Shown here: positions 1 through 26,911 of the stretch, in pieces | How positions within the stretch are numbered: the first letter of the stretch is position 1 | Layout of the letters: each line of letters opens with the position of its first letter | Origin: a virus | Lineage: Duplodnaviria > Heunggongvirae > Uroviricota > Caudoviricetes | Reading direction: 5' to 3' (one strand) | DNA length: 27,380 nucleotides | IMG/VR virus record: IMGVR_UViG_3300010280_000022 | Notes under the pieces: model-generated | The model's database searches: none | What the model saw: the letters and a program-made list of their open reading frames with translations, nothing else | What the model was told of the DNA's origin: nothing | Position numbers and translations under genes: made by a program

Positions 1-2420
1 CATATATTATTTGCCGACCTATGTACATACGTATTTACTATCGGCTTAGATGAAGATGAACCCTTAGCTCTCGAACCATCGATAAGACAGTCAGACACTG
101 ACATAAATCCTGAAACAAGGTTGTTACTCACATCCCAATCTATGGCCATTTTGTCAAAATAAACACTGCCAAGCATATATGTTTTTCCACCAGAATAGCC
201 TACAAACCTACGTAATACACCACCATAATGCTTGATGTAACTCCTAGTCATTCCTGATGTGATATTCATATATACAATATCCATATTGCACTCAATTCCG
301 TAAAGGCAAGATGCATATTCTGATATGTGTCCAACATAACATACAACTTTACATCCAGTTGATTCAGATGGAGTCAATTTAATTACAGGAATATCTCTTG
401 TAGATGCATCATGATATGAAATTGCCAACTCAAATCTTGCGTCTTTACCATTAAAAGTGCTACCAGTAAAATCTATCAACGACGGCATTTTAAAGTCACG
501 CAAAGGTGATGGCTGTGTTTTAAAGTTATTTTTAAATGATAAAATATTGAGTGTTACCTCAGAAGGCCAGTATATATTCGTCTGTACAATTATATTCTTC
601 GGAAGATGTAAAGTGCGCGGCTGGACAGGGTTCCCGGACGCGATAACATTGTCTGAACGACACAAAATCATATCCACCAAACCGGATGAACCCTCTGGAA
701 TACGAACGGATCCCCCACGGACTATGAAATCACCTTTATGTTCACCGTAATCCGTACGTACTCCAAACGGCCCTATGTGAGAATTGATGATCTGTGTTGC
801 CTCGTCGAACGCCCCAGTACCAACCAAGACGCCGCCAGGTATCCGACAATTATCAACAAGAATCTTTGAGCACCCATAGTGCATGTGAAAGCTATCAATA
901 TTACTGTCTCTCACAACTACATCCCTGCAATAGTTGCCGTCAATAGACCTCCACCCCTTACCCACTTCGCAGCCGATAAAAGTATGTTTAAGGGTGTACT
1001 CCATAGCTACGGTATAACGAGAATTATTATCCGTCTGCGTAATACCCGCACTCGTTAATCTCCAGTTAACTCCGTAGGTGGTAGAGCTACCAAAAATATT
1101 AGAATCTGTAGCTGTCATCCCCATGTCATTAAAGTAAACAACCTCAACATCAACTAAAGAACGTTGGATATCAAAAGCATAGCGTGAAAATTGACCAGTG
1201 AAACGCGGCAATACAATTTTATTACGCTTAGTTGGTAGCTTAAATAACGTACAAGTTACGGGGTCGTTGTAAGTATTTTTAAGACTGTAAGCCAATTCCC
1301 CTGGCTTAGTCATAAAGTTCACTTCACCTTTATATCTTGGGCTGAATACACCACCAATCAACCTATAGAGATCAACCTCTGTTGGACTTATTATTTTGAC
1401 GAGCGAATTACCCCACCCTGCTAAATCCTCAACACAAGAAAAAACTGAGGTTAACTCGTTCAATGGGTATGTTGATATATTAACTTCCTTTATATAATTA
1501 TCATCATCCCTTTCATCTTTATACACAACCTTTCCGTTTGTTAAGTGGAAAGTACAATTACTCAAATCAAAATCACCATATAGATATGTTTCTTTATCTA
1601 TGGTGAAAGTTAGTGGCGCGCTTGAGTATATTTTTATTGGTGTATTTTTATACTTATAAAATATAGCATTAAGCTGATCACTATTCCGCTCACCGTCTAG
1701 TGCGCTTATATCATATATATATAATCTGTTTTCTAATCCACCAATTAACTTATACCCATCAGGTTTAGCTAATTCAATTAGAACGTCTGAGGCAGATCCA
1801 GATGGTGGTAATACGACAAATGGATTACCATCATTATCAAAAGCAACCATCTTGTTTGCTCTTTCAATAGCATCAGGTAAGGAAGGTATTGATTCAGGAA
1901 CACGAAGAGTTTTGCTTAGATTGCTACCAGCAAGCGTATCCACGTAATTTTTTGTTGCCGCATCCTGCGGAAATCTGGGATCTCTCAGGTTACGAATATA
2001 ATTGTTCAAAGCATCATAATAATTAGCAATAAATGATGGTTTACGCAGAGCCAACCTGAACCAACTTCTAACCTGCTGTATCAGCATCGTCAGTTTATCG
2101 AATGCGTCTTCATGCACCTCAGCGAAGAACTTACCCTGGTTGCGCAGATCGGTATCCTGCGTAACCGGTAGCTCTCTTGATATAGAAATCTGATAACCGT
2201 TAACCAACGCCTTCGACAGAATTACATTGCCGCCGTTATACCCTCCCGCACCAGTGACTATGTAATCAGTATCAAGAATCAGCTCTGTGATGTTCTCGTT
2301 CAGGTCAACAACCTGCACTACTAAATCAGATTTCTGGAAAATCCTGAAGGTATAAGGGAATGTCGTTGTAACACCGTTACCGGTGTATTCGTTGTGGTCA
2401 ACTTCGGTTGAGACCGTCAT
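1..2420 (-). CDS. Tailspike / tail fibre protein, 3'-truncated by window edge (at least 806 aa); T7 gp17-like N-terminal anchor domain plus AT-rich divergent C-terminal region
   Basis: Minus frame open from ATG at 2420 (GGAG 8 nt upstream) to position 1; absent from ORF track because no stop lies in the window. N-terminus MTVSTEVDHNEYTGNGVTTTFPYTFRIF..LVVQVVDL..DTDYIV fits the conserved podovirus tail-fibre N-terminal pattern. Confidence 0.8.
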   Translation of the reverse strand, partial: MTVSTEVDHNEYTGNGVTTTFPYTFRIFQKSDLVVQVVDLNENITELILDTDYIVTGAGGYNGGNVILSKALVNGYQISISRELPVTQDTDLRNQGKFFAEVHEDAFDKLTMLIQQVRSWFRLALRKPSFIANYYDALNNYIRNLRDPRFPQDAATKNYVDTLAGSNLSKTLRVPESIPSLPDAIERANKMVAFDNDGNPFVVLPPSGSASDVLIELAKPDGYKLIGGLENRLYIYDISALDGERNSDQLNAIFYKYKNTPIKIYSSAPLTFTIDKETYLYGDFDLSNCTFHLTNGKVVYKDERDDDNYIKEVNISTYPLNELTSVFSCVEDLAGWGNSLVKIISPTEVDLYRLIGGVFSPRYKGEVNFMTKPGELAYSLKNTYNDPVTCTLFKLPTKRNKIVLPRFTGQFSRYAFDIQRSLVDVEVVYFNDMGMTATDSNIFGSSTTYGVNWRLTSAGITQTDNNSRYTVAMEYTLKHTFIGCEVGKGWRSIDGNYCRDVVVRDSNIDSFHMHYGCSKILVDNCRIPGGVLVGTGAFDEATQIINSHIGPFGVRTDYGEHKGDFIVRGGSVRIPEGSSGLVDMILCRSDNVIASGNPVQPRTLHLPKNIIVQTNIYWPSEVTLNILSFKNNFKTQPSPLRDFKMPSLIDFTGSTFNGKDARFELAISYHDASTRDIPVIKLTPSESTGCKVVCYVGHISEYASCLYGIECNMDIVYMNITSGMTRSYIKHYGGVLRRFVGYSGGKTYMLGSVYFDKMAIDWDVSNNLVSGFMSVSDCLIDGSRAKGSSSSKPIVNTYVHRSANNI

Positions 2421-2524
2421 GTTAAATCTCCAGATAGTCGCAGCACCCGTTGCGCCGCATATCCGGTTATTCTATTACCTGAAAAACCATATATGGATAG
2501 ACAACCCATAAATACGAACAGATA

Positions 2525-2539
2525 TTACCTTTCAGGTGA
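2525..2539 (+). promoter_or_regulatory. Dyad motif site A: TTACC-TTTCA-GGTGA
   Basis: One of five intergenic copies of ATTACC-N5-GGTRA; lies between tailspike start and the LexA-box gene. Confidence 0.45.
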
Positions 2540-2578
2540 TTCGCAAAACGTGCTGGATAGCAAATAAATTATTTGATA

Positions 2579-2594
2579 CTGTATATTTATACAG
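2579..2594 (+). promoter_or_regulatory. LexA (SOS) box CTGTATATTTATACAG
   Basis: Exact CTGT-N8-ACAG with AT-rich core, flanks taCTGT..ACAGtt; preceded by TTGATA (2573-2578); 22 nt upstream of ATG at 2616. Confidence 0.75.
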
Positions 2595-2615
2595 TTATTG
2601 CATGGAGAAGATAAG

Positions 2616-2873
2616 ATGCAGCAGTATCACTATCCACTGGAAGACGGATTTACCGAAAGGATTCACACGCCGGGAGGCGTCAGATCACTGGTGGAGGGAT
2701 CGCACTTGATGAAATTACTCCGGGATCTCGATAAGGATGGATTTAATGTCGATGGCCCACTTGCCGAACTGACTGCACTGATTAACTACGTCACCAGCTC
2801 ACAGATGTCTATGCGGGATCTGCAAACACATCTCGACTATTGTGCCGAACAATTACGAAAACAAACCAGATAA
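2616..2873 (+). CDS. Small protein (85 aa) paralogous to the C-terminal domain of the adjacent antirepressor; candidate SOS-inducible antirepressor or modulator
   Basis: ORF-track frame 2598..2873 begins at TTG; in-frame ATG at 2616 has GGAG 8 nt upstream. Motifs P.GV..L.E.S.LM.LL..L..DG..V.G..AELT and LRD.QTH..Y are shared with residues ~150-231 of the 3189..3884 protein. Confidence 0.7.
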   Translation: MQQYHYPLEDGFTERIHTPGGVRSLVEGSHLMKLLRDLDKDGFNVDGPLAELTALINYVTSSQMSMRDLQTHLDYCAEQLRKQTR

Positions 2874-2904
2874 GGTTTGCAATTACCAAGTGGAGTGCTT
2901 ATAT

Positions 2905-2919
2905 TTACCTTTGCGGTAA
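2905..2919 (+). promoter_or_regulatory. Dyad motif site E: TTACC-TTTGC-GGTAA, nested in a longer inverted repeat
   Basis: Perfect TTACC/GGTAA arms; flanked by AAGTGGAGTGCT (2888-2899) and AGCACTCCTCTT (2928-2939), inverted with one mismatch. Confidence 0.45.
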
Positions 2920-3010
2920 ATTTACATAGCACTCCTCTTGTGCCATAGTAATCGGGCACTGGCAAAATCCAGTGCCGGGATTGGCGTCCCGGATTACTAA
3001 AAGGCGCATT

Positions 3011-3031
3011 CACCGCGCAAGCGGTTTTTTT
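3011..3031 (+). terminator. Rho-independent terminator between the small LexA-controlled gene and the antirepressor gene
   Basis: Stem ACCGC/GCGGT with GCAA loop followed by six T. Confidence 0.6.
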
Positions 3032-3188
3032 ATGCGTATAGCACGGCCACATTCGTATTATGGTGGGCTGTGTGGGGGCACCGAAAGGTGCGCCGGGTCC
3101 TTTTAGCCGGTTACGCCAACCCTGCACAGTTCACCACCAACCGATTGGCGTCGGTAGTGGTGATTAACCAGACTAAAAGGTAACCACT

Positions 3189-3884
3189 ATGACAGCTACA
3201 AAAAGCACGTCCATTTTTTCTTTCGAATCCCAAGCCGATATACGGGTAATCGTCATTAATGGTGAGCCATGGTTTATCGCTTCAGATGTTTGTCGGGCTA
3301 TAGGCATAGCAAACCATCGAGATGCTGTTCGAAAACTTGATGATGATGAGAAGGGCGTCGCTTCAACCGACACCCCTGGCGGTGAGCAAGAATCGATCAT
3401 CATCTCCGAGTCAGGCCTCTACACACTGATCCTCCGCTGCCGCGATGCGGTGACACCAGGCACTATCCCATACCGCTTTCGTAAATGGGTTACAGGTGAG
3501 GTTCTTCCTCAGATCCGCCGCACCGGAAGTTACATTAAAAACTCGCTCACGCAGGAAGAACGCATAAAGATGGTTGCCGACCAGGTAGCCAACGCCACGG
3601 CGTCAGCAGTGATGCAGGCGATGAAGATAGAGAACAAAACCTACAGTGCCCCACTGAAGCCCGGCTACCGCAGCCTGATTCATTCGCCGTCTGGTGTTCT
3701 CGGCCTGACGGAGAACTCACTGCTGATGAATTTGCTGAACCAGTTACAGGAAGACGGGCACGATGTATCGGGCGCGGCGGCGGAACTGACCACCATGTTC
3801 TGCTACATCGTCGGTGTGAGCAAATGCCTGCGTGATATCCAGACTCACGCGGAGTACATCAACGACAAAGCAGGATTCTTCTGA
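3189..3884 (+). CDS. Bro-N family phage antirepressor (231 aa)
   Basis: N-terminal IRVIVINGEPWFIASDVCRAIGI...LDDDEKGV is the Bro-N/antirepressor signature; AAAAGG upstream of ATG; long structured leader. Confidence 0.8.
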   Translation: MTATKSTSIFSFESQADIRVIVINGEPWFIASDVCRAIGIANHRDAVRKLDDDEKGVASTDTPGGEQESIIISESGLYTLILRCRDAVTPGTIPYRFRKWVTGEVLPQIRRTGSYIKNSLTQEERIKMVADQVANATASAVMQAMKIENKTYSAPLKPGYRSLIHSPSGVLGLTENSLLMNLLNQLQEDGHDVSGAAAELTTMFCYIVGVSKCLRDIQTHAEYINDKAGFF

Positions 3885-3958
3885 CAGAACGGCGGCACAG
3901 GGATGTGCCTTTAAATAATTCTGTACAGATTGCAGACTGGGGGGTGAATAGAGTACTA

Positions 3959-3973
3959 TTACCTTACGGGTGA
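3959..3973 (+). promoter_or_regulatory. Dyad motif site C: TTACC-TTACG-GGTGA
   Basis: Same ATTACCTT left arm as other sites; sits ~40 nt upstream of the mini-ORF and terminator that precede the membrane-protein gene. Confidence 0.4.
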
Positions 3974-4063
3974 TCCATAGCGATTAGGCACCGATACAGG
4001 AGGAGCCCACATGAGAAAATTTGACGAGTACGAAGGCGTTTAACATTCGGATAGTTTAATGAC

Positions 4064-4084
4064 GGGGCCATTAGGCCCCGTTTT
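4064..4084 (+). terminator. Terminator/attenuator hairpin directly upstream of the membrane-protein gene
   Basis: GGGGCC-ATTA-GGCCCC then GTTTT; ends 18 nt before GTG at 4103. Confidence 0.5.
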
Positions 4085-4102
4085 CATGTCTGGAGACAGT
4101 TT

Positions 4103-4642
4103 GTGTTAAGTGAAGAAATGCAATTTGCCATGGCTGTGGCTCAAATCGTAAGTGCAGTCGCGGTTTCGCTTGGCTTGTTCATAGCTATCGCTACTATTAT
4201 TTATAATGTAAATACAGCGAGAAAAGTACACACTTCAGTATTCCTTGGTGAAAGCAGGTTTGATGTAGATTATAAGAAAGGCCTATCTACTATGCGCCGC
4301 ATTCACGAATCGAACAAATCATTCCGCTCTTATATGTATCCAAGCAATGGGCAGGCTGATCTTACGGATGAAGAAAAGATAGAGAAGAGAGAAATAATTT
4401 ACTGTCTAGGTTTCTACGAACGCATGGCTGTGAGCGTGAAGCGGAAAACTTATGATGAGACCATGATTAAGGAAGTATTTTACAGCTCCGTTGTAAATAA
4501 CTATCAGATTGCGCTACCTCTTATACAAGCTATTAGAGAAAAAGAAAACATAAACACATATTTTAAAGAATATGAATGGTTGGCCACACGATGGAAGGAT
4601 TGTCCATTGAAAGATAAATCCCCGTGGTACAAGTTTTGGTAA
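4103..4642 (+). CDS. AT-rich inner-membrane protein (179 aa; one N-terminal TM helix); candidate superinfection-exclusion/defence moron
   Basis: GTG start with GGAG 6 nt upstream (alternative ATG at 4118); hydrophobic segment FAMAVAQIVSAVAVSLGLFIAIATIIY; AT-rich codon usage unlike the flanking structural genes; strong terminator follows. Confidence 0.7.
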   Translation: MLSEEMQFAMAVAQIVSAVAVSLGLFIAIATIIYNVNTARKVHTSVFLGESRFDVDYKKGLSTMRRIHESNKSFRSYMYPSNGQADLTDEEKIEKREIIYCLGFYERMAVSVKRKTYDETMIKEVFYSSVVNNYQIALPLIQAIREKENINTYFKEYEWLATRWKDCPLKDKSPWYKFW

Positions 4643-4663
4643 GCCCGCGACGCGGGCTTTTTT
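4643..4663 (+). terminator. Rho-independent terminator after the membrane-protein gene
   Basis: GCCCGCG..CGCGGGC hairpin immediately after TAA, followed by six T. Confidence 0.7.
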
Positions 4664-4735
4664 GTGGACGAAACAAAAGTCAGTGCTACACTCATTGACG
4701 CCACATTGAGGTGGCTTATAGATGGAAATTTCACA

Positions 4736-4933: not shown

Positions 4934-5494
4934 CTACATTGATATATGATTCATAAAGTAGCTTAAAGATTTACTTCCCAGAAAAGAAATTTCTTTTCCT
5001 GGATATGTCGCAATAATTGAGCATGACTTATCCCCGTTAGAGGTAACAAATCCTGAATAACCTACTTGTTCTTTACCATTTTGTTGCTTGGCTAAAAAGT
5101 AGAGGTAGCTTATCTTTTTGCCCTCTGGGTAAAACTCTGCCAAACCAGTATCGGTGATTGAATATTTTATTCTCCCGCCTTGAGTAACGTTTTCCATCTC
5201 AAGTTTAGCTATGTCTTTTCTGTTGTATTCAGCATTGATTTTCCTTTCGAAATCAATGTTGTTTTCAAATGAGTAGGAAGCAACAGTCTGAATAGATGGG
5301 AACACGTTTATCTGGATGCCTCCACAGTCGGCACAGGTATAAAGGTATGAATCAGATGGAATCCCCATAAAAGAAAACTGAGTTACCTTAAATTTATCGC
5401 TATCTCCAAAGTATTGAAGTTCGCATTTAACATTTTGCCCTGCAAAAGAAAATGCAGACATCAATATTGAAACAAAAAATATAATTGCCTTCAT
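4934..5494 (-). CDS. AT-rich secreted/periplasmic protein (186 aa), last gene of the late operon; function unknown
   Basis: Signal peptide MKAIIFFVSILMSAFSFA; four Cys; ATG 3 nt after the stop of the upstream 850-aa gene; composition much more AT-rich than the core genes. Confidence 0.7.
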   Translation of the reverse strand: MKAIIFFVSILMSAFSFAGQNVKCELQYFGDSDKFKVTQFSFMGIPSDSYLYTCADCGGIQINVFPSIQTVASYSFENNIDFERKINAEYNRKDIAKLEMENVTQGGRIKYSITDTGLAEFYPEGKKISYLYFLAKQQNGKEQVGYSGFVTSNGDKSCSIIATYPGKEISFLGSKSLSYFMNHISM

Positions 5495-5496: not shown

Positions 5497-8049
5497 TTAT
5501 TTACCTAGCATGAACTGCGATGGTGGGATCAGAAAGCCGTTACCCTGCTCACGCTCAACACGGCGCTGATAACGCTCAAGAGAGCCTGGGTCAAGGGCAT
5601 CTTGTATCCGGTTCAATATTAAACCATTCATCGCCGTACGAAGCCAGAACACGTTGAGGAATGGCGTATTGTCAAGTGCCGTGCGATACCAGTCACCCAA
5701 ATCTGCATCCCCTCTCGTGGTCTGCTGGAGCAGCGTGATAATGCTGTCAGCGTTCGATGCTGCTGGCCCCATTAGCGACGTAACCGGCCCGGCCCCCATG
5801 CGGTTGACCTCGCCAAACATGAAGTCACCCAAGATGCCAAGACCGCCCCCCTGAGATGCGGCTGCGAGAAACGTCTTGGCATCTGCCGGGCGTGGTGTTT
5901 GCCCTTTCAGCATGAGTTTTGACTGCATGGAGATATAACCAAACATAGTCGCCCAGACAAAGAGGTTTGCAGCACCAAGGAAAGCCCCCTTCCCGTTACG
6001 TAGCAGCGCATTCGTCAGCGATCCGGTTTTCGACTCACCAAGCCCAGCAGGAATATAACCACGCCCGAATACTTCGCGTCCTAGTACGTTCTGCATGAAG
6101 CTTGCAGTGAACGATTTGTACTGACCAGCGAATCGTATTGCTTCCCCAGCCACCGTTCCTGGCACCGTGCCCATCTTCATAAACGCCTGCGTGCGATCGC
6201 CAGGCTCTGACATGGCGATATTCAGGCGGTCAAGGATGTAGCCGCGCAACTGCCCTTCCAATTGATCGCGTGCGTCAGCGATAGCGCGCTGCGTTGGTTT
6301 GATCCCCTTACTCTCTACATAACCGGCAATCACTTCGTCAGGCACGCCGCGGATGCCGCTGGTCGTCATGAACTTACGACCTTCGCTATCGGCCATGTCC
6401 ATGTTGCGAAAAATTTCCCACTCACGTTCGCCAATACCGTGCAGATCCAGCACGCGTCGCAGGTCTTCCGGTAGCCGCGCATGAGACTGGTCAGCATTCT
6501 TTGCAAGCCAGTTGGTTATCATCATGGCGTTGCTGTTGCGACCGCTCTCGGTCCAGAAGTTCATGAGGTTGTACTTAAAGAAAAGCTGCTGCGCGCGACC
6601 AAGCTTTCCATTCAGCGTGTCATCACCAGATATGCGCCGGATGATTTCCTGCGTCATGGAGTCGGAATAAACTCCGATAGAGGAAAGGATCTCTTTCTGC
6701 TCCGCGCTGTTGTAACGCGTGAAGCGGCCTCTCATAGCACCAAGCAACGCCTGCATAAAATTCTGCCCTTGGTAGCGCATCTCGGTAGCGGCGATAGGCA
6801 CGTCGTTAAACGATGAGATTACCGCGCCACCAAGTTGGCTCATACGCAACCAGCCGCGTACAGCCGCCGACGCATTGGCCCAGCCTACGCTGCCAGGAAT
6901 ATTTAGCGAGCCGTCAACCTGCGGCATTACGGTACGGTTAATGCGACGCACCTTCGTCATGTAGTCAGCCAACGCTGCCGGTCTTCCGGATTTGCTGATA
7001 TCTTCAGCAATGGCGTCCGTCAGGTACTTAAACATGTTCTGTGGGTTAGTGCCCAGTACGCGCATCATGCCCGTTGTGCGGGCAGCGCTGTTTAAGCCAC
7101 CAAACAGCGCTTCTCGCAGGCTGCCGGTGCCGAATTGCTGGTTGTACTCGTGCCAAGAGATACCATCTTTGAAGTGCAAAATTCGCTCTTGGCTGGCGCG
7201 TTTAGCTGCGTTCGCCGATCCCTTAAAGCCATTCATCCAATCGGGCTTTTCAGATGTAAGATGCACGCCGGAAGCCAGCCCGTTATAAATGTTACGCATG
7301 AACTGCTCGCGGTCAGCCACGCCGTCAAAAGTGCGCTCATCAAGGCGCGGGAGAATAGCATTTCGCCATGCATCATAACCTGCGGCGCGGATCTTCATGA
7401 TGTCGTGTGACTGGCGCACTATATAGCCCGGCTCTTTGCGTATCCATGCCCCGGCGCGGTTCTCATCAATGCGCGCAGTTTCCTGCCATTTCATGATGAT
7501 TTGTGCAGCGCTTACGGATTGCTTTGTCATACCGTCAGTTGACTGCCCGCGCCCTATGCGCCACATTGCATCGGCAATTTCCCGGTCATTGCTGCCGCTG
7601 GCGATGAATTGCACCAGCCCGGCACGGTCAAAATCGTAGTTGATACCGGAATGATACTTGCCGCGCAGTTGCGCCACCTCCGAAGATACCGACCGGCGGG
7701 CGCCGGTACGCGCATCGTTGCGGCCAACCAGCATTGCTTCAAGCCCGATATCCGGGCGGTCTTTCCAGATAGTACGAAGCTCTCTAAGTCGTTGTGCGGC
7801 AATACGGGCGTTGATTGCCTTATTGCGAGCCTCAATCTGTTTTGCCAGCATATCGGCATTGCTCAGTTCTTCCGCTGCGCGCATCGCGGCCTCTTCCAGA
7901 GACAGCGCCTCATTGGTCGCCAGAATTCGCCTAGTGGTGTCGTTCATGTCACGCACCAGCGACTCCATCTCATCGGAAGAAAGCTCGCGACCAGCGGCAG
8001 CATTTACACTGCGCTCGCACTGCGTCAAAAATTCGTTTGCTGCCATCAC
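5497..8049 (-). CDS. Internal virion/ejection protein (850 aa; T7 gp16-like position)
   Basis: Long ORF overlapping start/stop with neighbours, in the block between tail-tube genes and tailspike. Confidence 0.7.
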   Translation of the reverse strand: MMAANEFLTQCERSVNAAAGRELSSDEMESLVRDMNDTTRRILATNEALSLEEAAMRAAEELSNADMLAKQIEARNKAINARIAAQRLRELRTIWKDRPDIGLEAMLVGRNDARTGARRSVSSEVAQLRGKYHSGINYDFDRAGLVQFIASGSNDREIADAMWRIGRGQSTDGMTKQSVSAAQIIMKWQETARIDENRAGAWIRKEPGYIVRQSHDIMKIRAAGYDAWRNAILPRLDERTFDGVADREQFMRNIYNGLASGVHLTSEKPDWMNGFKGSANAAKRASQERILHFKDGISWHEYNQQFGTGSLREALFGGLNSAARTTGMMRVLGTNPQNMFKYLTDAIAEDISKSGRPAALADYMTKVRRINRTVMPQVDGSLNIPGSVGWANASAAVRGWLRMSQLGGAVISSFNDVPIAATEMRYQGQNFMQALLGAMRGRFTRYNSAEQKEILSSIGVYSDSMTQEIIRRISGDDTLNGKLGRAQQLFFKYNLMNFWTESGRNSNAMMITNWLAKNADQSHARLPEDLRRVLDLHGIGEREWEIFRNMDMADSEGRKFMTTSGIRGVPDEVIAGYVESKGIKPTQRAIADARDQLEGQLRGYILDRLNIAMSEPGDRTQAFMKMGTVPGTVAGEAIRFAGQYKSFTASFMQNVLGREVFGRGYIPAGLGESKTGSLTNALLRNGKGAFLGAANLFVWATMFGYISMQSKLMLKGQTPRPADAKTFLAAASQGGGLGILGDFMFGEVNRMGAGPVTSLMGPAASNADSIITLLQQTTRGDADLGDWYRTALDNTPFLNVFWLRTAMNGLILNRIQDALDPGSLERYQRRVEREQGNGFLIPPSQFMLGK

Positions 8050-15876: not shown

Positions 15877-16484
15877 CAGGACAACCTCGCAATGGTAAAC
15901 TCATCAACCGGTGGCTGTGGTTCCTGTGATTCATTCTGGCTATGCGAGCCAGCACTAAGAATCACGCGATTGTACATATTGAGGGCAAACGTACCGAGGT
16001 CTGCATTCCCAGTCAGCGCCATGTTAATAGCTGCCGCAAGACGCCAGGCCAACGCCTCCATAAAAATGGCATCAAACATGTTCACATCTGAAACGCGAGA
16101 GACATACTTGAGCCATGCCTGCGGCTGGTCTGTGTAGATCAACTTTCCTGTTCCGTTGGTGTCTGCACCAACTTCGTACTGAACGCGCATTGCTGCTGTT
16201 GGATTGCGTACACCAGGAAGCATAATTTCAGTAATGCGCAGACAATCGGACGGGTACTGGTACGCATATTCCCAGTCAGGCGGTGGATTGCTCGTATCTG
16301 CAAGCGCCACGCGTTTGGTAGCAAAGTTCCAGTCAAAATCAGAAAGCACAGCATCACGGCAGGCCTCAAAATGCAGCGAACATTCCCCCGCTTCCTTGCT
16401 GGCTTCCGTCAGGCTGTTAATGCTGCGGCTGTTGCCAATATTGGACAGCGCACGATTACAGATCTCTACTACAGAGGCCATCAC
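15876..16484 (-). CDS. Tail tubular protein A-like (202 aa; T7 gp11-like)
   Basis: Size and position; N-terminal ICNRALSNIGNSRSINSLTE resembles the gp11 N-terminal pattern. Confidence 0.6.
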   Translation of the reverse strand: MMASVVEICNRALSNIGNSRSINSLTEASKEAGECSLHFEACRDAVLSDFDWNFATKRVALADTSNPPPDWEYAYQYPSDCLRITEIMLPGVRNPTAAMRVQYEVGADTNGTGKLIYTDQPQAWLKYVSRVSDVNMFDAIFMEALAWRLAAAINMALTGNADLGTFALNMYNRVILSAGSHSQNESQEPQPPVDEFTIARLS

Positions 16485-16804
16485 TCACCCCCGTTACCGT
16501 AGAGGGTTTCAGCCGCTGATTTTTCTACATCACCGGAAACAGGAGCGATTGCCATATCAGTGATCTGCAGATCGGCGCTGCGATTAACACCATCGTCAGT
16601 TTCTCTGGCAGACAGGCCTCGAATAACAGCCTTTGCAGTTATCATCACTTCTGTTCCGACGCCCTGAGGTTGCGCCTTCAGCTTATTCAATGTGTCGTTA
16701 TTCAGCGTGATGCACAGCCCCCACGGGTATTCATCGCGAGTTCTGGTTTCTCCGCTCTCATCCTGGTAGCTGTCAGTGCCGGTTTTGAGGTTTACGAGTT
16801 CCAT
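16481..16804 (-). CDS. Hypothetical virion protein (107 aa)
   Basis: ORF-track start at 16810 is GTG; ATG at 16804 has AGGAG 5 nt upstream. Confidence 0.55.
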   Translation of the reverse strand: MELVNLKTGTDSYQDESGETRTRDEYPWGLCITLNNDTLNKLKAQPQGVGTEVMITAKAVIRGLSARETDDGVNRSADLQITDMAIAPVSGDVEKSAAETLYGNGGE

Positions 16805-16814
16805 ATACACTCCT

Positions 16815-16836
16815 GCAATAAAGGGGCCGAAGCCCC
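16815..16836 (-). terminator. Intra-operon hairpin/partial terminator between the capsid and tail gene blocks
   Basis: Minus-strand GGGGC-UUCG-GCCCC followed by TTTATTG, between the 114-aa and 107-aa genes. Confidence 0.5.
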
Positions 16837-16854
16837 TTGTCTGATTCGCGAGGC

Positions 16855-17199
16855 TTACACGCCCAGTTCTTTACGCTTATCTGCGATCTTCTCGCGGAGC
16901 GTTTCTGCTTTGGCGTTATGGTGTGGCTTCTCGTTAAAGAGCAATTCGTACTCTTCACGGAGCTTATCCAGTTCACCATCATCTGACACATCGTTGATGA
17001 TTTTGGTGCTGGTTGCTGCCATTGACACCTTTCCTGCAACTTTTGCTTTTGCCTGTCTGGCTGCATCGTTAACAGGTTCCAGTGCGCTACCAGGCTCACC
17101 TTCGTATTCGATTTCTGCCCCCTCCGGCCACAGAGTGTTATGGATATGAGAGAGGCGCAGAACGCGGTATCTTGGTTTCTCACCTGACATCGATATCAC
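16855..17199 (-). CDS. Hypothetical virion protein (114 aa)
   Basis: ORF in the structural operon; charged, helical C-terminus. Confidence 0.55.
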   Translation of the reverse strand: MISMSGEKPRYRVLRLSHIHNTLWPEGAEIEYEGEPGSALEPVNDAARQAKAKVAGKVSMAATSTKIINDVSDDGELDKLREEYELLFNEKPHHNAKAETLREKIADKRKELGV

Positions 17200-17200
17200 C

Positions 17201-17638
17201 TTAACCAGTTACTTTTGAGCGGATCGGATACGGCGTATTGGCATCAACATCAAGACTGATACCCGCAGTGAATTCGCCAGCCGTTAGTGGGCCAGTTGCG
17301 ACGGAGTAGTTAACACGCAGATATCGCTGAACACCGGCAGGCACCTTTGCAGAAACAACTCGTTTACCTGCTGTCAGGGCGGTCTTTGCCAGTGCACCAC
17401 TATCATAAATAGTGGTCCATGAGCTGTTATCCTCACTCGTCTGCAACTGGATGTTTACAGTTGCATCACCGCTTGCTGCGGCGGCTGTGTTAACCAGCGC
17501 CCAAAACTCAAGCGGGTAACCCACGCCGATATCACGACGTTTTCCGTCAATTGGACCGAGATCGATTACGTCAGTAGAAGCCGCGGTATCAGTTACCGCC
17601 TGTGCTTCGGAGAACATCAACAGTTTGTCGGTGATCAT
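17201..17638 (-). CDS. Hypothetical structural protein (145 aa), possibly capsid-associated
   Basis: Immediately downstream of the major capsid gene; GGAG upstream of ATG. Confidence 0.55.
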   Translation of the reverse strand: MITDKLLMFSEAQAVTDTAASTDVIDLGPIDGKRRDIGVGYPLEFWALVNTAAAASGDATVNIQLQTSEDNSSWTTIYDSGALAKTALTAGKRVVSAKVPAGVQRYLRVNYSVATGPLTAGEFTAGISLDVDANTPYPIRSKVTG

Positions 17639-17689
17639 CTTCTTTCTCCATTAGTGGGTCTGTTACGACCCACAGGTTAATAACAGGCG

Positions 17690-18682
17690 TTACACCACGC
17701 GGGCTTCTGTTTCCAGAAGCGCATCAGTTTCACGGATTGGTACACCACGGAATGACGTCCACCACTCGCCTTCAGTCTCTTTTACGCTAATCGCCAGAGA
17801 TGTTTTCTCCAGAGACTGCAAATCAAGAGCCTGGCCTACAGTGCGGTTCATGTAGAACACCGGGCGACCCATGCCACGGTTTGGAATGCGATGCAGTGCT
17901 TTAACCATCAACTTCGCAATATTTGCGGCAGAGGAAGGTTCTGAAAGATTGCTGACATCGATGTTTGCAATGCGAACAACATAACGCCAGTCACGCAGAG
18001 CAAGTCCGTTATCCCATTTATAATGGGTGCGATAGCCTTCGTACTTGCCGCCATTAGCATCTTCCAGTGTCACCTGGCCTTTATCTTCCATCTGGATGCC
18101 AGCCTTCTGCCCTTTCGGGAAGATGCCATGCACGGTGTTTTCGCCCCACACCACTAACCAGATTGAGGTGTTATCTGTACCCGTGCCACCAGCATCAATG
18201 ATGTTCTGAGCATTACCCGCAGACAGGCTGGAATAGCGGGAGGACAGTCCCATAAACTGCTGAGGGTTAACGCTGGAATCACCATAAAACAGCGTCTGCG
18301 CCATCTGCTGATTCATCGCTTCAATAAATGCGCGGTCTTCAGACAGGCGGAATTCGGCGGTATTGCCGTTCAGATCAGCCAGTGACTTATCGACTTCAGC
18401 ATAGGTTTCCAGCATGCCAACGGAATCGGTGACCTGCACTGTGGTTGATTTGCTTGGCTGTACACCATAGTTCAGCAAACGCCAGGTAGCTGAAGGTAAA
18501 CCAGAACGAATGGTGGTTCGGTGTCCGGTAGGAAGGTTCCCTTCGACAAAAGGCATATCCTGAAGGATCGGGTTAGTTTGACCGAGAAGCTCGATAATCT
18601 TATCGACTTTCCCGTTTGGATCGACGCGCTTACCCCAGTCAGCCAGCGTTAGCGCAGTTAAGCCTTTAACAGCCATTGTCAT
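17690..18682 (-). CDS. Major capsid protein (330 aa)
   Basis: Position after the scaffold gene, size, strong RBS GAGAGGAA. Confidence 0.75.
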   Translation of the reverse strand: MTMAVKGLTALTLADWGKRVDPNGKVDKIIELLGQTNPILQDMPFVEGNLPTGHRTTIRSGLPSATWRLLNYGVQPSKSTTVQVTDSVGMLETYAEVDKSLADLNGNTAEFRLSEDRAFIEAMNQQMAQTLFYGDSSVNPQQFMGLSSRYSSLSAGNAQNIIDAGGTGTDNTSIWLVVWGENTVHGIFPKGQKAGIQMEDKGQVTLEDANGGKYEGYRTHYKWDNGLALRDWRYVVRIANIDVSNLSEPSSAANIAKLMVKALHRIPNRGMGRPVFYMNRTVGQALDLQSLEKTSLAISVKETEGEWWTSFRGVPIRETDALLETEARVV

Positions 18683-18690
18683 TTCCTCTC

Positions 18691-19392
18691 TTATTTGCCA
18701 TAGAGCACTTCGGCCGCACTACGCTGGCCTTCATTACCACCGGTGACCATGCCATCTTCAGACATCGCCTTTCCGATTTTCACGAACGTTTTGACCAGAT
18801 CAGGGTGATTACCCAGCCCGGTGGTGTTCAGATATTCTTTGAGTTCAGGTGTCCCGAACTGGTCAAGCGCACGCTGTGCGGCGCTGAGGTTAGAAATCAA
18901 CTTGTCGCCACCGATTTCTTTGTCAGCTTTTACATCCGCAGCCCACTGCTCGGTTGTTTTCTGCCAGGCTTCTGCCTGGCGCTGCTGAACACCTGCCAGA
19001 ATCTTCGGATAAGCATCAACCAGCTTTTGCGCTTGCTCGTTGGTCAGGTTAAGTTCTCGCGCCACCGGCTCGAATTCCTTCAACGCTTCTGTATCCAGCT
19101 CTACGCCTTCGGCAGCCTGAAACTCGTACTTCTCCGGCGCACCCTCCGGTTTATCGCCGTCATTTTTTTCACCCTGCTTATCGCTTTCAGGCTTTTTGTC
19201 ATCAGCAGGTTTATCGCCATCAGCAACAGGTTGTGGCTTATCACCTTCCTGTTGTGATGGATCACCAACTGGAGCAGGGTTATCACCTGTAGGCGCTGAC
19301 GGTTCTGACGCAGCCGGAGCTGCTCCACCATCGACTGGTTGCTCATTGCAAAGACGGCGATACAGCAAACGCTCAAATAAATTCATGATCAC
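18691..19392 (-). CDS. Scaffolding protein (233 aa)
   Basis: Acidic, Pro/Asp/Lys-rich low-complexity N-terminal half and helical C-terminal half, between portal and capsid genes. Confidence 0.65.
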   Translation of the reverse strand: MIMNLFERLLYRRLCNEQPVDGGAAPAASEPSAPTGDNPAPVGDPSQQEGDKPQPVADGDKPADDKKPESDKQGEKNDGDKPEGAPEKYEFQAAEGVELDTEALKEFEPVARELNLTNEQAQKLVDAYPKILAGVQQRQAEAWQKTTEQWAADVKADKEIGGDKLISNLSAAQRALDQFGTPELKEYLNTTGLGNHPDLVKTFVKIGKAMSEDGMVTGGNEGQRSAAEVLYGK

Positions 19393-19685
19393 TCCTGTTC
19401 ACTGGCCTCTTTGGCCATCTTCAAATACTGTTCAGGGCAATGCGCCATAACGCGCTGAAACAGTTCCAGCGCCAGATTGCGTTGCCCCTCATTAAATGCC
19501 ATTGCCATAGCGTCCATCGGTGAGATAGCGGAAAACACACGGCCTTTCTCCAGCACCGACCAGACAACGCGACGCCCCTGTTCACTGCTCATGACAAAGC
19601 GAATGTCATCAATTTCACGCTGCGCCATGTCACGTTGCTTACGGGCGTTTTCTTCTTTCAGTTGATCGTCTTCGTAATCTGTCAT
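19389..19685 (-). CDS. Hypothetical protein (98 aa) between portal and scaffold
   Basis: ATGA-type overlaps with both neighbours suggest translational coupling. Confidence 0.55.
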   Translation of the reverse strand: MTDYEDDQLKEENARKQRDMAQREIDDIRFVMSSEQGRRVVWSVLEKGRVFSAISPMDAMAMAFNEGQRNLALELFQRVMAHCPEQYLKMAKEASEQE

Positions 19686-21361
19686 TGTGATTGCCCACCC
19701 TGACCACTAACTGCATTCGCCATAGCTGACAAAACACTCGGATCCGAAGTTTTAGCTTCACTTAGCGTCTTGGCACCCTGTGCCGCCGCCATCCCCATCG
19801 CCATCATTTGTTGCTGCTGTTGTTGCTGTGCCCGTTGCTGGCGAGCCTGCTCAACCTGTTCCTGCGGAACAATGACGGTTGGAGACACTCCGGACATATC
19901 AGCGAATGCATCGATCGCCTGATCAACGTTGAGTTTGTCGAGAGCTTCTGGTTTCGCTTGCGCAAGTTGACCAATGAAGTTAACCGTGGACGCCAGACTG
20001 GACAGGCCGATAGACTTCTGCGCCTGAGCCATGACGGAAATGTATTCGACCTTCAGGGGCATGCCTTCCATCGCGTCAGGCGGTGGCGGCAGCATGTTTT
20101 TACGCACCATCATCGAGAAAGCGCGGTCAATGAGAGGATTAAGACATTCGTCGTTCAGACGCTCCAGAACCGGCCCCAACATCAGAAGTTTTTCTTCTTT
20201 CATTTCGATCACCGCTTCAACAGGCATCGAGCGGGTATTGATGTTCTGCAACATCATGAACAGATCGACAAAGTAGGCGCTGTTAATGATTTGACGAGTG
20301 TCCTGAATGTCTGCCACCAGATCTGCTGTACTGGGGTTAACCAGATAAGCAGGCCTGAAGCCATCCTGACCAGTAATCTGATCGATATACGTGATGTCGC
20401 CAGGAAGAAGGGAGGCGCGCTGATTCTTGAGGGAAGTCGGAGCAACCATCGGCGGATTGGTGGCTTTATCAATCAACTGCGACTTGCGCTTCTGGAGAAG
20501 CTGCAATGCCTTAACAGGTCCAAGCGCCAGCATACCCGGGCATGATGATCCATAAACATCTTCGCCGTTAACTTCCCAGCGCGGAGCCATAATTGGAAAC
20601 TCATCAAATCCGGACTCACGCAACAACTTGTCGTTATCGCCACCAACCTCGTAATAAACCGATTTGAATGGCTTGTTCTTGCTATCCAGCTTCGAAGTAT
20701 CGCGGTCAATGTTCGGGTAAACCGAATGCATCACTTCAATCCACTTCTCGTAGGTGCCGCTTTCCCACATGCTTTTTACGGATTCGCTGACGTTATTTAG
20801 CCCGAACTCCTGAACAAGCTGACGAACAGTCATAGAGAACTTGCGAAAACAGGTGTCCACACTGCCACGAGGTGAGTTAGCCAGGTAGTAACTGCCTATC
20901 GGGAATGGCATTGTGCGAATGATGTCCTCGTCATCCTCCAGCACTGCCATTGCACCAGTGCTGTATGTGCCGAGGCTTCCGTATAACTGCGGCAGCGACT
21001 GATAGAGATTCGACTTATTGAACATATCGTTCATGCGGTTCTGCACCGCCTCAAGCCACAACTTAACAGGGCCATAATCCATCATTTCAGGATCTGGCGT
21101 AGCCAGGCGAAACCACGGACGCGCGGGGCTTGTGATGCCTGACATCATGCCACTAGCGAGAGTGCGCGCCGCCATAGTCCCGGTCGAATCAATAATGCGT
21201 GTATTGCGTCGATCGTTACGGTTGACCTCAGAAGTCAGAAAGCGGGAACCACGCGGGTTGATGTAATCACTCAACTCGCGCCAGTGCGGCTCGAACGACT
21301 GACGCTCGCTTTCAAGTTGTGCGAACTGTTTGTTCAATCGCTCTTTAGTTGTTTCCGCCAT
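19682..21361 (-). CDS. Portal (head-to-tail connector) protein, T7 gp8-like (559 aa)
   Basis: Q-rich stretch followed by MMAMGMAAAQGA near the C-terminus and an ERL...P N-terminal pattern recall T7 gp8; GGAG 8 nt upstream. Confidence 0.8.
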   Translation of the reverse strand: MAETTKERLNKQFAQLESERQSFEPHWRELSDYINPRGSRFLTSEVNRNDRRNTRIIDSTGTMAARTLASGMMSGITSPARPWFRLATPDPEMMDYGPVKLWLEAVQNRMNDMFNKSNLYQSLPQLYGSLGTYSTGAMAVLEDDEDIIRTMPFPIGSYYLANSPRGSVDTCFRKFSMTVRQLVQEFGLNNVSESVKSMWESGTYEKWIEVMHSVYPNIDRDTSKLDSKNKPFKSVYYEVGGDNDKLLRESGFDEFPIMAPRWEVNGEDVYGSSCPGMLALGPVKALQLLQKRKSQLIDKATNPPMVAPTSLKNQRASLLPGDITYIDQITGQDGFRPAYLVNPSTADLVADIQDTRQIINSAYFVDLFMMLQNINTRSMPVEAVIEMKEEKLLMLGPVLERLNDECLNPLIDRAFSMMVRKNMLPPPPDAMEGMPLKVEYISVMAQAQKSIGLSSLASTVNFIGQLAQAKPEALDKLNVDQAIDAFADMSGVSPTVIVPQEQVEQARQQRAQQQQQQQMMAMGMAAAQGAKTLSEAKTSDPSVLSAMANAVSGQGGQSQ

Positions 21362-21375
21362 TTCAATGACTCCGG

Positions 21376-21582
21376 TTACTGACCAAGTAGCGTTTTACCG
21401 CTGGTATTAGCGGTTGATGTGTCGCCCTGAGAACCGGTAAGCAGCGTAGAACTACGACCAGCAGCAGCGCGACGGCGACGAGTTTCTTCGTCGCGGGCAT
21501 CAACAACGGCGGCATCCTGCTCCTGTGGTGCTGCCTGAACTTCTGGTGTTGCAGGCACTGATGGTGAGCTACCCATGCACAT
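21376..21582 (-). CDS. Small Ala/Gln/Arg-rich protein (68 aa) upstream of portal
   Basis: Same RBS context GGAGTCATTGA(T/A)ATG as portal; the overlapping 21363..21602 frame looks non-coding. Confidence 0.5.
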   Translation of the reverse strand: MCMGSSPSVPATPEVQAAPQEQDAAVVDARDEETRRRRAAAGRSSTLLTGSQGDTSTANTSGKTLLGQ

Positions 21583-21672
21583 ATCAATGACTCCGTACGC
21601 AATTAAATTATTACCAATTTAACCACATATGATTTATTTATCGTAGACAGTTGACATTTAACGCACGAATTA

Positions 21673-21687
21673 TTACCTTTCAGGTAA
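21673..21687 (+). promoter_or_regulatory. Dyad motif site B: TTACC-TTTCA-GGTAA (perfect inverted repeat)
   Basis: Perfect palindrome 17 bp downstream of a TTGACA hexamer (21651-21656); heads the tRNA/moron insertion. Confidence 0.5.
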
Positions 21688-22009
21688 CCAAAGAGTTCAT
21701 TCCGGTTACTAACCTGACTGGCTTGTCGTTAAATTGAACAGGTGGAGTGAGCTTTTATTTTGATCAGTACGGCGTATGGCACATGCGCCGATAGCGGTCT
21801 GGATACGTTTAAGGGGCACCCTCCCTTGCTCGGGCAAACGAACCAGGTAGCCGGAATGTGCAAGTCGAGCGGTTTTATTCCGCGCACGGGGATTCACCAT
21901 CCCGGCGATTCGGTGTGACGCCTCGGAAGAGACGAGGGTACAACGATGAGAGCATTTATGGAGCCGCGACAAAGTGTGGTGCCTTAACAGGCTAAGTGCT
22001 CTCAGCGTT

Positions 22010-22086
22010 GTGGCATTAGCTCAGTCGGACAGAGCAACCGCCTTCTAAGCGGTTGGTCGCAGGTTCGAATCCTGCATGCCACGCCA
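22010..22086 (+). tRNA. tRNA-Arg (anticodon UCU, reads AGA), phage-type
   Basis: Acceptor stem GTGGCAT/ATGCCAC, D-arm AGCTCAGTCGGACAGAGC, anticodon loop CTTCTAA, T-arm GCAGGTTCGAATCCTGC, discriminator G plus CCA. Confidence 0.85.
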
Positions 22087-22249
22087 GAATCACGCCTAAG
22101 GACCGTGATGCCAGAAGTTCCAGGTGCTTGGCGGTGATGGTTTCCCTTGAAGAACTATCACCGCCCTTTTTACAGCAGGACGCCATTGCGATGACTTCAT
22201 GCTGTAAACCAGTACAGCCACGGAAGGCATAACTCATTGCTTCCAGTTC

Positions 22250-22273
22250 GCCCGGTTCGCCGGGCATTTTTTT
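22250..22273 (+). terminator. Rho-independent terminator downstream of the tRNA
   Basis: GCCCGG-TTCG-CCGGGC followed by ATTTTTTTG. Confidence 0.7.
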
Positions 22274-22289
22274 GCTTGATGACCGCAAA

Positions 22290-22304
22290 TTACCTTAAAG
22301 GTAT
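22290..22304 (+). promoter_or_regulatory. Dyad motif site D: TTACC-TTAAA-GGTAT, abutting TATAAT and the moron ATG
   Basis: ATTACCTTAAAGGTATAATcATG; right arm overlaps an AAGG Shine-Dalgarno-like element 7 nt from ATG at 22309. Confidence 0.45.
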
Positions 22305-22308
22305 AATC

Positions 22309-25192: not shown

Positions 25193-25201
25193 AACCACCG
25201 T

Positions 25202-25231
25202 GGTAATAGTTACCGTTGTGGTAATAGTACC
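25202..25231 (-). repeat. Tandem palindromic repeats GGTAATAGT(T)ACC x2 in the terS leader
   Basis: Copies at 25202-25214 and 25220-25231, 10-40 nt upstream of the terS start. Confidence 0.5.
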
Positions 25232-25232
25232 A

Positions 25233-25261
25233 TGCAAAATAAAGCCGCCATAGTTGGCGGC
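25233..25261 (-). terminator. Rho-independent terminator between the nin-like genes and terS
   Basis: Minus-strand GCCGCCA-ACTA-TGGCGGC followed by TTTATTTTG. Confidence 0.6.
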
Positions 25262-25266
25262 AGTAT

Positions 25267-26910: not shown

Positions 26911-26911
26911 A

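Follow-up and report, generated by a model that had tools for sequence, protein, structure and literature searches.

The 27,380-nucleotide stretch of phage DNA analyzed here (the window) carries a short dyad that recurs ahead of several transcription units, which raises the question of whether this dyad is an operator, a promoter element or an RNA hairpin, and which regulator it serves. A preliminary description had placed three copies, written ATTACC-N5-GGTRA, on the plus strand. We confirmed the 15-bp core TTACC-N5-GGTRA at 2525-2539, 2905-2919 and 3959-3973 on this strand and also found it at 21673-21687 and 25210-25224. These five places compare with 0.10 expected from 100 dinucleotide shuffles (largest count in any shuffle, 2), while the form ATTACC-N5-GGTRA occurs at 4 places against 0.02 expected, in agreement with the earlier estimate of its rarity by chance. 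The ATTACC wording did not hold throughout: site E reads ATTTACC...GGTAAAT and fits the core, not ATTACC. Relative to the 17-mer ATTACC-N5-GGTAAT, the sites in the window have 1-2 mismatches each. The half-site ATTACCTGAAA that had also been reported is present, but its true position is 2474-2484, one base away from the earlier coordinates. Of the two copies said to head the tRNA/moron island, the one at 21673 does face the island, whereas the one at 25210 lies upstream of terS, 21 bp from the minus-strand ATG of this terminase small-subunit gene. A weaker site with 2 mismatches, ATTACCTTAAAGGTATA, was seen at 22289-22305 within the moron island.

All five exact sites are intergenic, as had been described, and none was found in the ~25 kb of coding DNA; the non-coding share of the window is ~7% by a hand-made ORF list. 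Control DNA from three lambdoid-prophage/host loci (20.6 kb each, partly redundant) contained no dyad. The window is part of an epsilon15/phiV10-like (Uetakevirus) prophage, and each related genome has 11-12 copies of the dyad, nearly always in intergenic DNA (10/11, 12/12 and 12/12), which makes up only 6.5-17% of these genomes (binomial P 1e-10 to 1e-15). The lone dyad counted as coding is an effect of a long terS start call in phiV10. The dyads are concentrated between genes in the window and its relatives alike, the pattern for which the preliminary description had suggested a motif scan. In phiV10, TL-2011b, Tyrion, epsilon15, SPC32H, Klebsiella ST11-OXA245phi3.2 and L016, the rep gene is flanked on each side by 2-3 dyads, with the rep-flanking spacings kept at 62 and 48 bp. 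Other dyads in the relatives stand ahead of replication, terminase, head, lysis and antirepressor units.

Seven such dyads are annotated as protein_bind 'repressor' in the epsilon15 RefSeq record NC_004775.2, and all of them read (A)TTACC-N5-GGTAAT; this annotation may be computational. When the window was aligned with its relatives, as had been suggested earlier, site A fell on the annotated epsilon15 site 19895-19911 in the tailspike/ant intergenic region. Judged by the flanking genes, the site at 21673 is the homologue of the annotated epsilon15 site 2931-2947 and of phiV10 3252, and the tandem site at terS is the counterpart of the annotated epsilon15 site 12-27. For sites E and C there is nothing comparable in epsilon15, since this phage lacks the isrK/C4/Bro-N and DUF4760 cassettes. 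At homologous positions in diverged relatives the half-sites are fixed and the spacer changes. Of the viral contigs retrieved with a probe for the left half-site alone, 107/107 also had the right one, correctly spaced, and a right-half-site probe found the left one in 124/124. The central spacer base was A/T in 122/124 strand-pooled counts, and the remaining spacer positions varied (45 spacers among 62 sites).

The preliminary description had attributed the motif to a regulator not encoded in the window. This agrees with what we observed, as the dyad is identical to the epsilon15 repressor sites and flanks rep in every relative examined. The probable regulator is a Rep of the SPC32H type (PDB 5D50; the PDB 5D50/5D4Z switch), encoded outside the window. 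In prophage L016, which is 99.99% identical to window positions 16102-27380 (11.3 kb), the Rep gene lies ~4 kb past the right end of the window, flanked by OL and OR operator pairs, and its product is identical to phiV10 gp40. Since Rep is absent from the window, the pairing of a cognate Rep with the dyads rests on this near-identical prophage. Both epsilon15 gp38 and phiV10 gp40 matched the Rep of PDB 5d50_A, with E values of 8e-128 and 4e-42 (full length), respectively. The phiV10-type Rep shares only ~42% identity overall with the epsilon15/SPC32H Rep, but conservation of the N-terminal DNA-binding domain extends to all of these proteins. No S24 autocleavage domain was found in Rep. Published work describes Rep as a tetramer that binds palindromic DNA sites (PMC9638917) and its N-terminal domain as the DNA-binding domain, with a repression mechanism that 'has not been extensively characterized' (PMC9986798); the ZX5 paper covers both repressor and antirepressor but names no operator. 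Our putative operator assignment rests on the epsilon15 GenBank annotation and secondary text. Taking together the identity to the epsilon15 sites, the distribution, the positional conservation, the promoter register described below and the Rep/Ant homology, we propose that (A)TTACC-N5-GGTAA(T) is the operator of the main lysogeny repressor Rep (phiV10 gp40, epsilon15 gp38), with a probability of about 0.9.

The features around the sites are collected in Table 1. The -10 hexamer ends on the first T of TTACC at the strong PL-like promoters TTGACA-17-AATTAT and TTGACA-17-GATTAT and at sites A, E, C and 21673, and at site E this register is the same with four unrelated upstream families. Because of this register, bound Rep would be expected to cover -10/+1 and block initiation. 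The plus-strand promoter at site A is assigned tentatively, since conservation of its -35 does not extend to Tyrion or epsilon15. Next to the lone half-site, on the minus strand, is a conserved TAGAAT (2470-2475) directed toward the tailspike gene; the half-site itself might be a half-operator with an auxiliary function. The likely ant promoter, TGGATA-N17-TACTGT, was read by eye; a role of LexA at this promoter was reportedly described by Kim and Ryu in 2013. Operator E lies within a longer inverted repeat (2893-2934) and is adjoined by a promoter-like site of isrK itself, TTTACA-N17-CATAGT (2921-2949). The C4 RNA is directly 5' of the Bro-N gene. At terS, the operator at 25209-25225 has the exact core and 1 mismatch to the 17-mer; its neighbor at 25191-25207 has 1 mismatch. 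PADLOC returned nothing for the DUF4760 protein, the Bro-N protein or ORF 4934-5494, and a duplex-energy calculation of C4 against the ant leader was too unspecific.

Table 1. Putative Rep operators and adjoining features, in window coordinates.
Feature	Position	Strand	Remarks
Lone half-site ATTACC(TGAAA)	2474-2484		Conserved in Tyrion and epsilon15
Promoter, sigma-70-like, TAGACA-N17-GATATT	2498-2526	+	-10 overlaps left half-site of operator A
Putative operator A, ATTACCTTTCAGGTGAT	2524-2540		Between tailspike start (minus strand, ATG 2420-2418) and small Ant gene
LexA box, CTGTATATTTATACAG	2579-2594		Over likely ant promoter; conserved in Tyrion and epsilon15
Small antirepressor Ant, 85 aa	2616-2873	+	SPC32H Ant homologue (PDB 5d50_E, E 1.4e-46)
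Promoter-like TTGCAA-N17-TATATT	2877-2905	+	Last T of -10 is first T of operator E TTACC
Putative operator E, TTTACCTTTGCGGTAAA	2904-2920		Heads isrK/C4/Bro-N unit
isrK-family sRNA	2956-3031	+	Intrinsic terminator at 3012-3025
C4-family antisense RNA (P1/P7 immI type)	3056-3141	+	Rfam C4, 77.7 bits (gathering score 45)
Bro-N domain protein, 231 aa	3189-3884	+	Annotated antirepressor in relatives
Promoter-like TTGCAG-N18-TACTAT	3930-3959	+	Last T of -10 is first T of operator C; called by eye, 8/12, under scan threshold
Putative operator C, ATTACCTTACGGGTGAT	3958-3974		Heads mini-ORF/hairpin/DUF4760 cassette
Putative operator at tRNA-Arg/moron island	21672-21688		Overlaps plus-strand promoter-like TAGACA-N18-AATTAT facing island
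Putative tandem operators, 25209-25225 and 25191-25207	25191-25225		Between intrinsic-terminator-like hairpin and terS ATG (25189, minus strand)

These observations suggest how the sites might work. Rep would act as a non-cleavable tetramer, two of whose N-terminal helix-turn-helix domains would touch both TTACC half-sites, the centers of which lie 10 bp apart. At most sites the operator would span about -7 to +8, and bound Rep would exclude RNA polymerase. In a lysogen, Rep would shut off expression of the small Ant unit or the tailspike region via site A, the isrK/C4/Bro-N unit via site E, the DUF4760 cassette via site C, the tRNA/moron unit via 21673, the late terS operon via 25191-25225 and the early promoters beyond the window. 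Upon induction, the SOS response would strip LexA from its box at 2579-2594 so that Ant is made, and Ant would take apart the Rep tetramer, freeing all Rep operators together. We infer both the physical binding of Rep to the sites in the window, from the sequence relationships above, and the identity of the promoter controlled by site A; as ~58 bp separate this site from the likely LexA-controlled ant start downstream, its target could be the tailspike promoter instead.

The symmetry of the dyad would also fit an RNA hairpin in plus-strand transcripts (5-7 bp stem, 3-5 nt loop) that serves processing, boxB-like antitermination or protein binding. The short stems have folding energies of -3.6 to -6 kcal/mol (z-scores, -1.4 to -4.2), and GGTGA would give a U-G wobble on the plus strand at sites A and C. 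However, any dyad folds and the stems here are weak. No pairing-preserving variation was seen at the ±8 flank, where AA, TT and AC are common, and the sole variable core position, ±6, gives T-G or C-A on strand-collapsed sequence; positions ±3-5 and ±7 were fixed by the search pattern, and their invariance is by construction. Across diverged relatives it is the half-sites that stay constant and the spacer that is free. Among the sites, both orientations to the flanking genes are represented, and the divergent rep/cro control region also contains sites. Moreover, transcription is predicted to start within the dyad, which would leave the left arm out of transcripts from the adjacent promoter, and Rfam gave no match at the dyad positions. 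The hairpin option offered in the preliminary description was abandoned in view of the lack of covariation, the mixed orientation and the predicted starts, and we regard it as extremely improbable. The likeness to MqsA-type palindromes had been called only a resemblance, and rightly so, since the ACCT-N3-AGGT core occurs in just 9/43 distinct sites and is incidental. An MqsA-type palindrome as such (ACCT-N(2-4)-AGGT; 9/43 distinct sites, 2/5 window sites) was rejected, and so was an element that is a promoter only, as the dyad persists with four unrelated promoters and nine unrelated cargos and its right half is downstream of -10.

Another regulator might instead be the sole user of the operator, for instance a Cro-like protein encoded beside rep or an epsilon15 gp49-like 'transcriptional regulator'. 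Cro proteins share the operators of the repressor in lambda, and the sites ahead of late units (terS, head, lysis) would suit an activator or a Cro-type protein. On the other hand, multiple sites on both sides of rep resemble OL/OR, the overlap with -10/+1 suits repression and not activation, and the epsilon15 record labels the sites as repressor sites; we consider exclusive use by such a regulator very unlikely. The Cro-like phiV10 gp41 could share the sites of Rep, which would not conflict with their being Rep operators. The module boundaries invite yet another explanation. Related phages lose homology to one another at the edges of the operators. A single promoter with its operator, of the site C type (3930-3959), stands ahead of nine or more unrelated cargo families in viral contigs, and at site E the isrK/C4/Bro-N unit is served by four promoters that are unrelated to each other. 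The dyad could on these grounds be primarily a recombination or cassette-junction site that marks accessory slots, comparable to integron attC or the target of a site-specific recombinase. Yet the same dyad is present at immunity, replication and late promoters, where no cassette exchange was seen, no dedicated recombinase is associated with it, and selection for working units would also leave junctions at the promoter/operator boundary. This makes a primary role in recombination very improbable.

A Rep operator might nevertheless double as a joint for the exchange of accessory cassettes, whether by recombination or by selection, and we put this forward tentatively, as possible but doubtful. 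The 15-17 bp dyad is the only sequence common to the unrelated modules, so exchange or selection there would give operator-delimited slots. Independently acquired promoters all stand in one fixed register with the operator, and the cargo includes a P1-type C4/antirepressor module, a DUF4760 membrane protein and at least 8 others. If the idea is correct, captured cargo would automatically come under Rep and SOS control. The coincidence of module junctions with operator edges is the sole observation that goes beyond the existing record, and it bears on how temperate-phage mosaics control new cargo.

On the sequence evidence, then, the dyad is most probably an ordinary Rep operator of a known system, and the preliminary description was right to read it as an operator. 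As the dyads appear to form the operator set of a characterized repressor family, no new regulator or RNA element is needed. The Rep regulon can be annotated in phiV10-group prophages, which are frequent in E. coli, O157 and APEC strains among them. We predict that lysogens do not express the accessory cassettes, the tRNA island or the late operon, and that all of these come on at the same time once LexA-controlled Ant inactivates Rep.

The closest known system is the Rep-Ant pair of epsilon15 and SPC32H, with which the window shares the genus, the genome layout and the identical dyad ATTACC-N5-GGTAAT; the window has an SPC32H-type small Ant with a LexA box, and its relatives have the homologous Rep. 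It differs from epsilon15 in having the cassettes headed by sites E and C, and the phiV10-group records examined carry no operator annotation, unlike epsilon15. The arrangement also resembles lambda CI/Cro at OL-OR, with multiple dyad operators on both sides of the repressor gene over divergent early promoters, presumed repression by promoter occlusion and an oligomeric repressor that could bridge sites. Unlike the lambda repressor, however, Rep is without an S24 autocleavage domain and is inactivated by an antirepressor, and its putative operators are also found at late, lysis and accessory promoters genome-wide. The stoperators of mycobacteriophage L5 gp71 are likewise present in many copies across the genome in short intergenic gaps, but they are asymmetric, oriented with transcription and block elongation, whereas the dyads in the window are symmetric and lie over the promoter -10/+1. 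As for MqsA, sites A and 21673 contain ACCTTTCAGGT, and MqsA and Rep are both of the XRE-type helix-turn-helix class, but the conserved TTACC/GGTAA bases lie outside the MqsA core. In P1/P7, the C1 repressor acts at many dispersed operators, and immI consists of Op51, the c4 antisense RNA and icd/ant. The window resembles this immunity system in its succession of an operator-controlled promoter, a C4-family antisense RNA and an antirepressor gene, and in the apparent control of many scattered transcription units by a single repressor. P1 C1 uses an asymmetric 17-mer, ATTGCTCTAATAAATTT, as its operator. The promoter of the module in the window carries the Rep dyad and not a C1-type Op51 operator, C1 is unrelated to Rep, and the window adds an isrK-family sRNA.

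The 15-bp core dyad, TTACC-N5-GGTRA, occurred in five places in the window against 0.10 expected from dinucleotide shuffles, and the longer ATTACC form in four (0.02 expected). Sites A, E and C of the preliminary description were thus confirmed as core dyads; the ATTACC-headed consensus given for them failed at site E, which reads ATTTACC...GGTAAAT and so conforms to just the core. The half-site ATTACCTGAAA was also present, at 2474-2484 rather than 2475-2485. Allowing up to two mismatches to ATTACC-N5-GGTAAT added sites at 25191-25207, adjoining the 25210 site, and 22289-22305, while the single match in coding DNA (6926-6942) was within chance (0.72 expected). All five exact sites were intergenic, as claimed earlier for A, E and C, in a window that is ~7% non-coding by a hand-made ORF list.

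Dyads, promoter-like elements and accessory-island features in the window
Feature	Coordinates	Detail	Basis
Core dyad, site A	2525-2539	+ strand	
Core dyad, site E	2905-2919	+ strand	
Core dyad, site C	3959-3973	+ strand	
Core dyad	21673-21687		
Core dyad	25210-25224		
Promoter-like, site A	2498-2526	TAGACA-17-GATATT	promoter scan
Promoter-like, site E	2877-2905	TTGCAA-17-TATATT	promoter scan
Promoter-like, site C	3930-3959	TTGCAG-18-TACTAT	by eye
Promoter-like, site 21673		TAGACA-18-AATTAT, + strand	promoter scan
LexA-box gene, small antirepressor Ant of Salmonella phage SPC32H	2616-2873		PDB 5d50_E, E 1.4e-46
isrK-family sRNA	2956-3031		Rfam
C4-family antisense RNA	3056-3141		Rfam
Bro-N protein, antirepressor-like	3189-3884	isrK and C4 RNAs just upstream	

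Since region 2300-4700 was 92-98% identical to Escherichia phages TL-2011b, ZX5, phiV10 and relatives (Tyrion and epsilon15-like phages being more distant), the window is, by sequence similarity, an epsilon15/phiV10-like (Uetakevirus) prophage; its structural genes lie on the minus strand. Whole-genome scans identified dyads at homologous positions in phiV10 (11), TL-2011b (12), Tyrion (11) and epsilon15 (12). Two or three separated the repressor gene from the divergent cro-like gene, and a further two or three came immediately after the repressor 3' end, before the early-left operon. A pair was located after the replication genes, single dyads between the serotype-conversion gene (oac in phiV10) and the lysis cassette, before the terminase gene terS and before the head genes, and the remainder beside the tailspike/antirepressor region. 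By annotated CDS, 10/11, 12/12 and 12/12 dyads were intergenic in three relatives with just 6.5%, 6.6% and 16.8% intergenic DNA (binomial P of 1e-11, 7e-15 and 5e-10, respectively), and the one 'coding' dyad of phiV10 was upstream of the terS start used in TL-2011b, Tyrion and epsilon15. The motif was enriched in intergenic DNA (P 5e-10 or lower) and conserved in position, and coding DNA did not carry it at similar density. It was absent from three unrelated lambdoid/host loci that we scanned.

The epsilon15 RefSeq record contains seven 'protein_bind, repressor, lysogeny' features, all reading (A)TTACC-N5-GGTAAT. One (19895-19911) aligned with site A in the tailspike/ant intergenic region, and two more were, judged by flanking genes, the counterparts of the 21673 and 25210 sites. 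The epsilon15 protein gp38 and the crystallised SPC32H repressor Rep are essentially one protein (5d50_A, E 8e-128), and phiV10 gp40 is a full-length Rep homologue (E 4e-42); homologues were found in 37 phage records, almost all Uetakevirus-like, and dyads also occurred on both sides of rep in SPC32H and a Klebsiella prophage. The window itself contains no rep. An exact-protein look-up identified a contig (GCA_023885065.1, L016) 99.99% identical to window 16102-27380. About 4.0 kb past the right end of the window this contig has a rep gene with dyad pairs on both sides, and the encoded Rep is the same as phiV10 gp40. The main interpretation in the preliminary description, an operator for a regulator not encoded in the window, was thus right: the dyad is a known element, the epsilon15/SPC32H-type Rep operator, predicted at the window sites from sequence. 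The system is already known, and little is new in the operator itself.

Rep is a tetramer on palindromic sites that is dismantled by Ant (PMC9638917, secondary literature). Its N-terminal domain is the DNA-binding domain, its two pairs of middle dimerization domains are ~100 Å apart, and its repression mechanism has not been 'extensively characterized' (PMC9986798). Among family members the N-terminal domain was well conserved, as was its NLVNRW...IG..AR.IE segment, in keeping with a half-site that does not change. Centre-to-centre pair spacings of 62 and 48 bp were fixed in the phiV10 group, and the epsilon15 sites were 76, 62, 17, 30 and 62 bp apart; the fixed spacings would be compatible with a tetramer having two DNA-binding units. 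At loci L003, L004, L005, L006 and L016 the operator pairs kept constant spacings across genera, 62 bp for the OL-like pair and for the one after the replication genes, 48 bp for the OR-like pair, and the epsilon15 OR had three sites spaced 17 and 30 bp. The gene that follows the replication genes (phiV10 gp45) has a conserved site, TTACCT.AGAGGTAAatcATG, overlapping its ribosome-binding site.

Promoter scans repeatedly put the end of the -10 hexamer on the first T of TTACC, or on its first two Ts. This register was seen in the PL-like promoters of phiV10 (TTGACA-17-AATTAT) and epsilon15 (TTGACA-17-GATTAT), at window sites A, E and 21673 and, by eye, at site C. In this register the operator would cover about -7 to +8, the classical position to block initiation. 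Induction would follow the SPC32H scheme, reportedly that of Kim & Ryu 2013 and Kim et al. 2016, in which LexA release leads to Ant synthesis and Rep disassembly. Of the sites, A is the least certain. Because Tyrion and epsilon15 do not conserve its plus-strand -35, the likely ant start is ~58 bp downstream, and a conserved minus-strand TAGAAT (2470-2475) abutting the half-site faces the tailspike gene, site A may serve the tailspike promoter. The lone half-site ATTACC is kept in Tyrion and epsilon15 although the intergenic DNA around it diverges. The stretch 2470-2484 may combine a tailspike promoter and an auxiliary half-operator, the latter ~50 bp from site A.

The dyad had also been proposed to form an RNA hairpin, but the stems are weak (-3.6 to -6 kcal/mol), and invariance at most stem positions proves nothing as the search pattern fixed them. 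The free positions were unpaired (±8 often AA, TT or AC; ±6 varying to T-G or C-A), half-sites stayed fixed while spacers changed at homologous positions in diverged relatives, dyads occurred in both orientations, and predicted transcription starts fall inside the dyad; a hairpin is thus highly improbable. We counted 45 different spacers among 62 sites, with A/T as the central base in 122/124 strand-pooled counts, and fixed half-sites with a free spacer and an A/T centre fit the pattern of a protein-DNA site. The suggested likeness to MqsA palindromes was rejected, the ACCT-N3-AGGT core being present in just 9/43 distinct sites. A Cro-like or late regulator may share the dyads with Rep, but it explains the OL/OR layout no better than Rep does.

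When seven related islands were compared, homology broke at operator edges (junction loci for sites C, 3958-3974, and E, 2904-2920: L017-L150). For site C, a probe that stopped at the left half-site retrieved 107 viral contigs, and the unspecified right half-site was at the correct spacing in 107/107; the promoter and operator led into nine unrelated cargo families, one of them the mini-ORF/DUF4760 cassette of the window (20 instances). For site E, a probe that began with the right half-site gave the unspecified left half-site in 124/124 viral-contig instances, preceded by four unrelated families, each with TTGAnn-N17/18-TATnAT in the exact -10/operator register. The constant presence of the unspecified half-site independently shows that selection acts on the complete dyad, and the probes support, for sites C and E, the claim that the dyad heads each unit. 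The dyad either promotes cassette exchanges or merely survives them, and this junction pattern is a modest lead beyond the known system. A longer inverted repeat (2893-2934, GGAGTGCT...AGCACTCC, -15.3 kcal/mol as RNA) encloses operator E. Its phiV10 counterpart (L002 3594-3632) is a perfect palindrome of ~39 nt with an inverted spacer (GCAAA vs TTTGC) and has lost the TTTACA -35 of the isrK promoter, which suggests a strand-switch or palindrome-forming event.

Downstream of operator C (4012-4642) lies a mini-ORF of 10 codons, MRKFDEYEGV, whose Shine-Dalgarno sequence is strong. It is followed by a GC-rich hairpin then Ts (~4062-4085) and by a 179-aa DUF4760 protein (Pfam E 1.6e-30). The order of these parts is similar to that of a leader-peptide attenuator, and PADLOC returned no hit for the DUF4760 protein. 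The operator-controlled plus-strand promoter at 21645-21673 precedes a leader of ~330 nt, tRNA-Arg(TCT) (22010-22086) and a terminator. Beyond the terminator come the weak dyad (22289-22305) and an ORF of <=296 aa (region to 23127), weakly matched in PADLOC by DndD, PbeC and LmuB (E 3e-5 to 2.5e-4). The two operators at 25191-25225, with centres 18 bp apart, separate an intrinsic-terminator-like hairpin (GCCGCC...GGCGGC plus a T run) from the terS ATG; this implies that Rep controls the late or packaging operon directly. Two antirepressor systems stand side by side in this prophage, the SPC32H-type small Ant and the Bro-N module, whose gene directly follows the tandem isrK- and C4-family RNAs (2956-3141). 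This isrK/C4/Bro-N module is of the P1/P7 immI type and is placed under a Rep operator in a Uetakevirus prophage.
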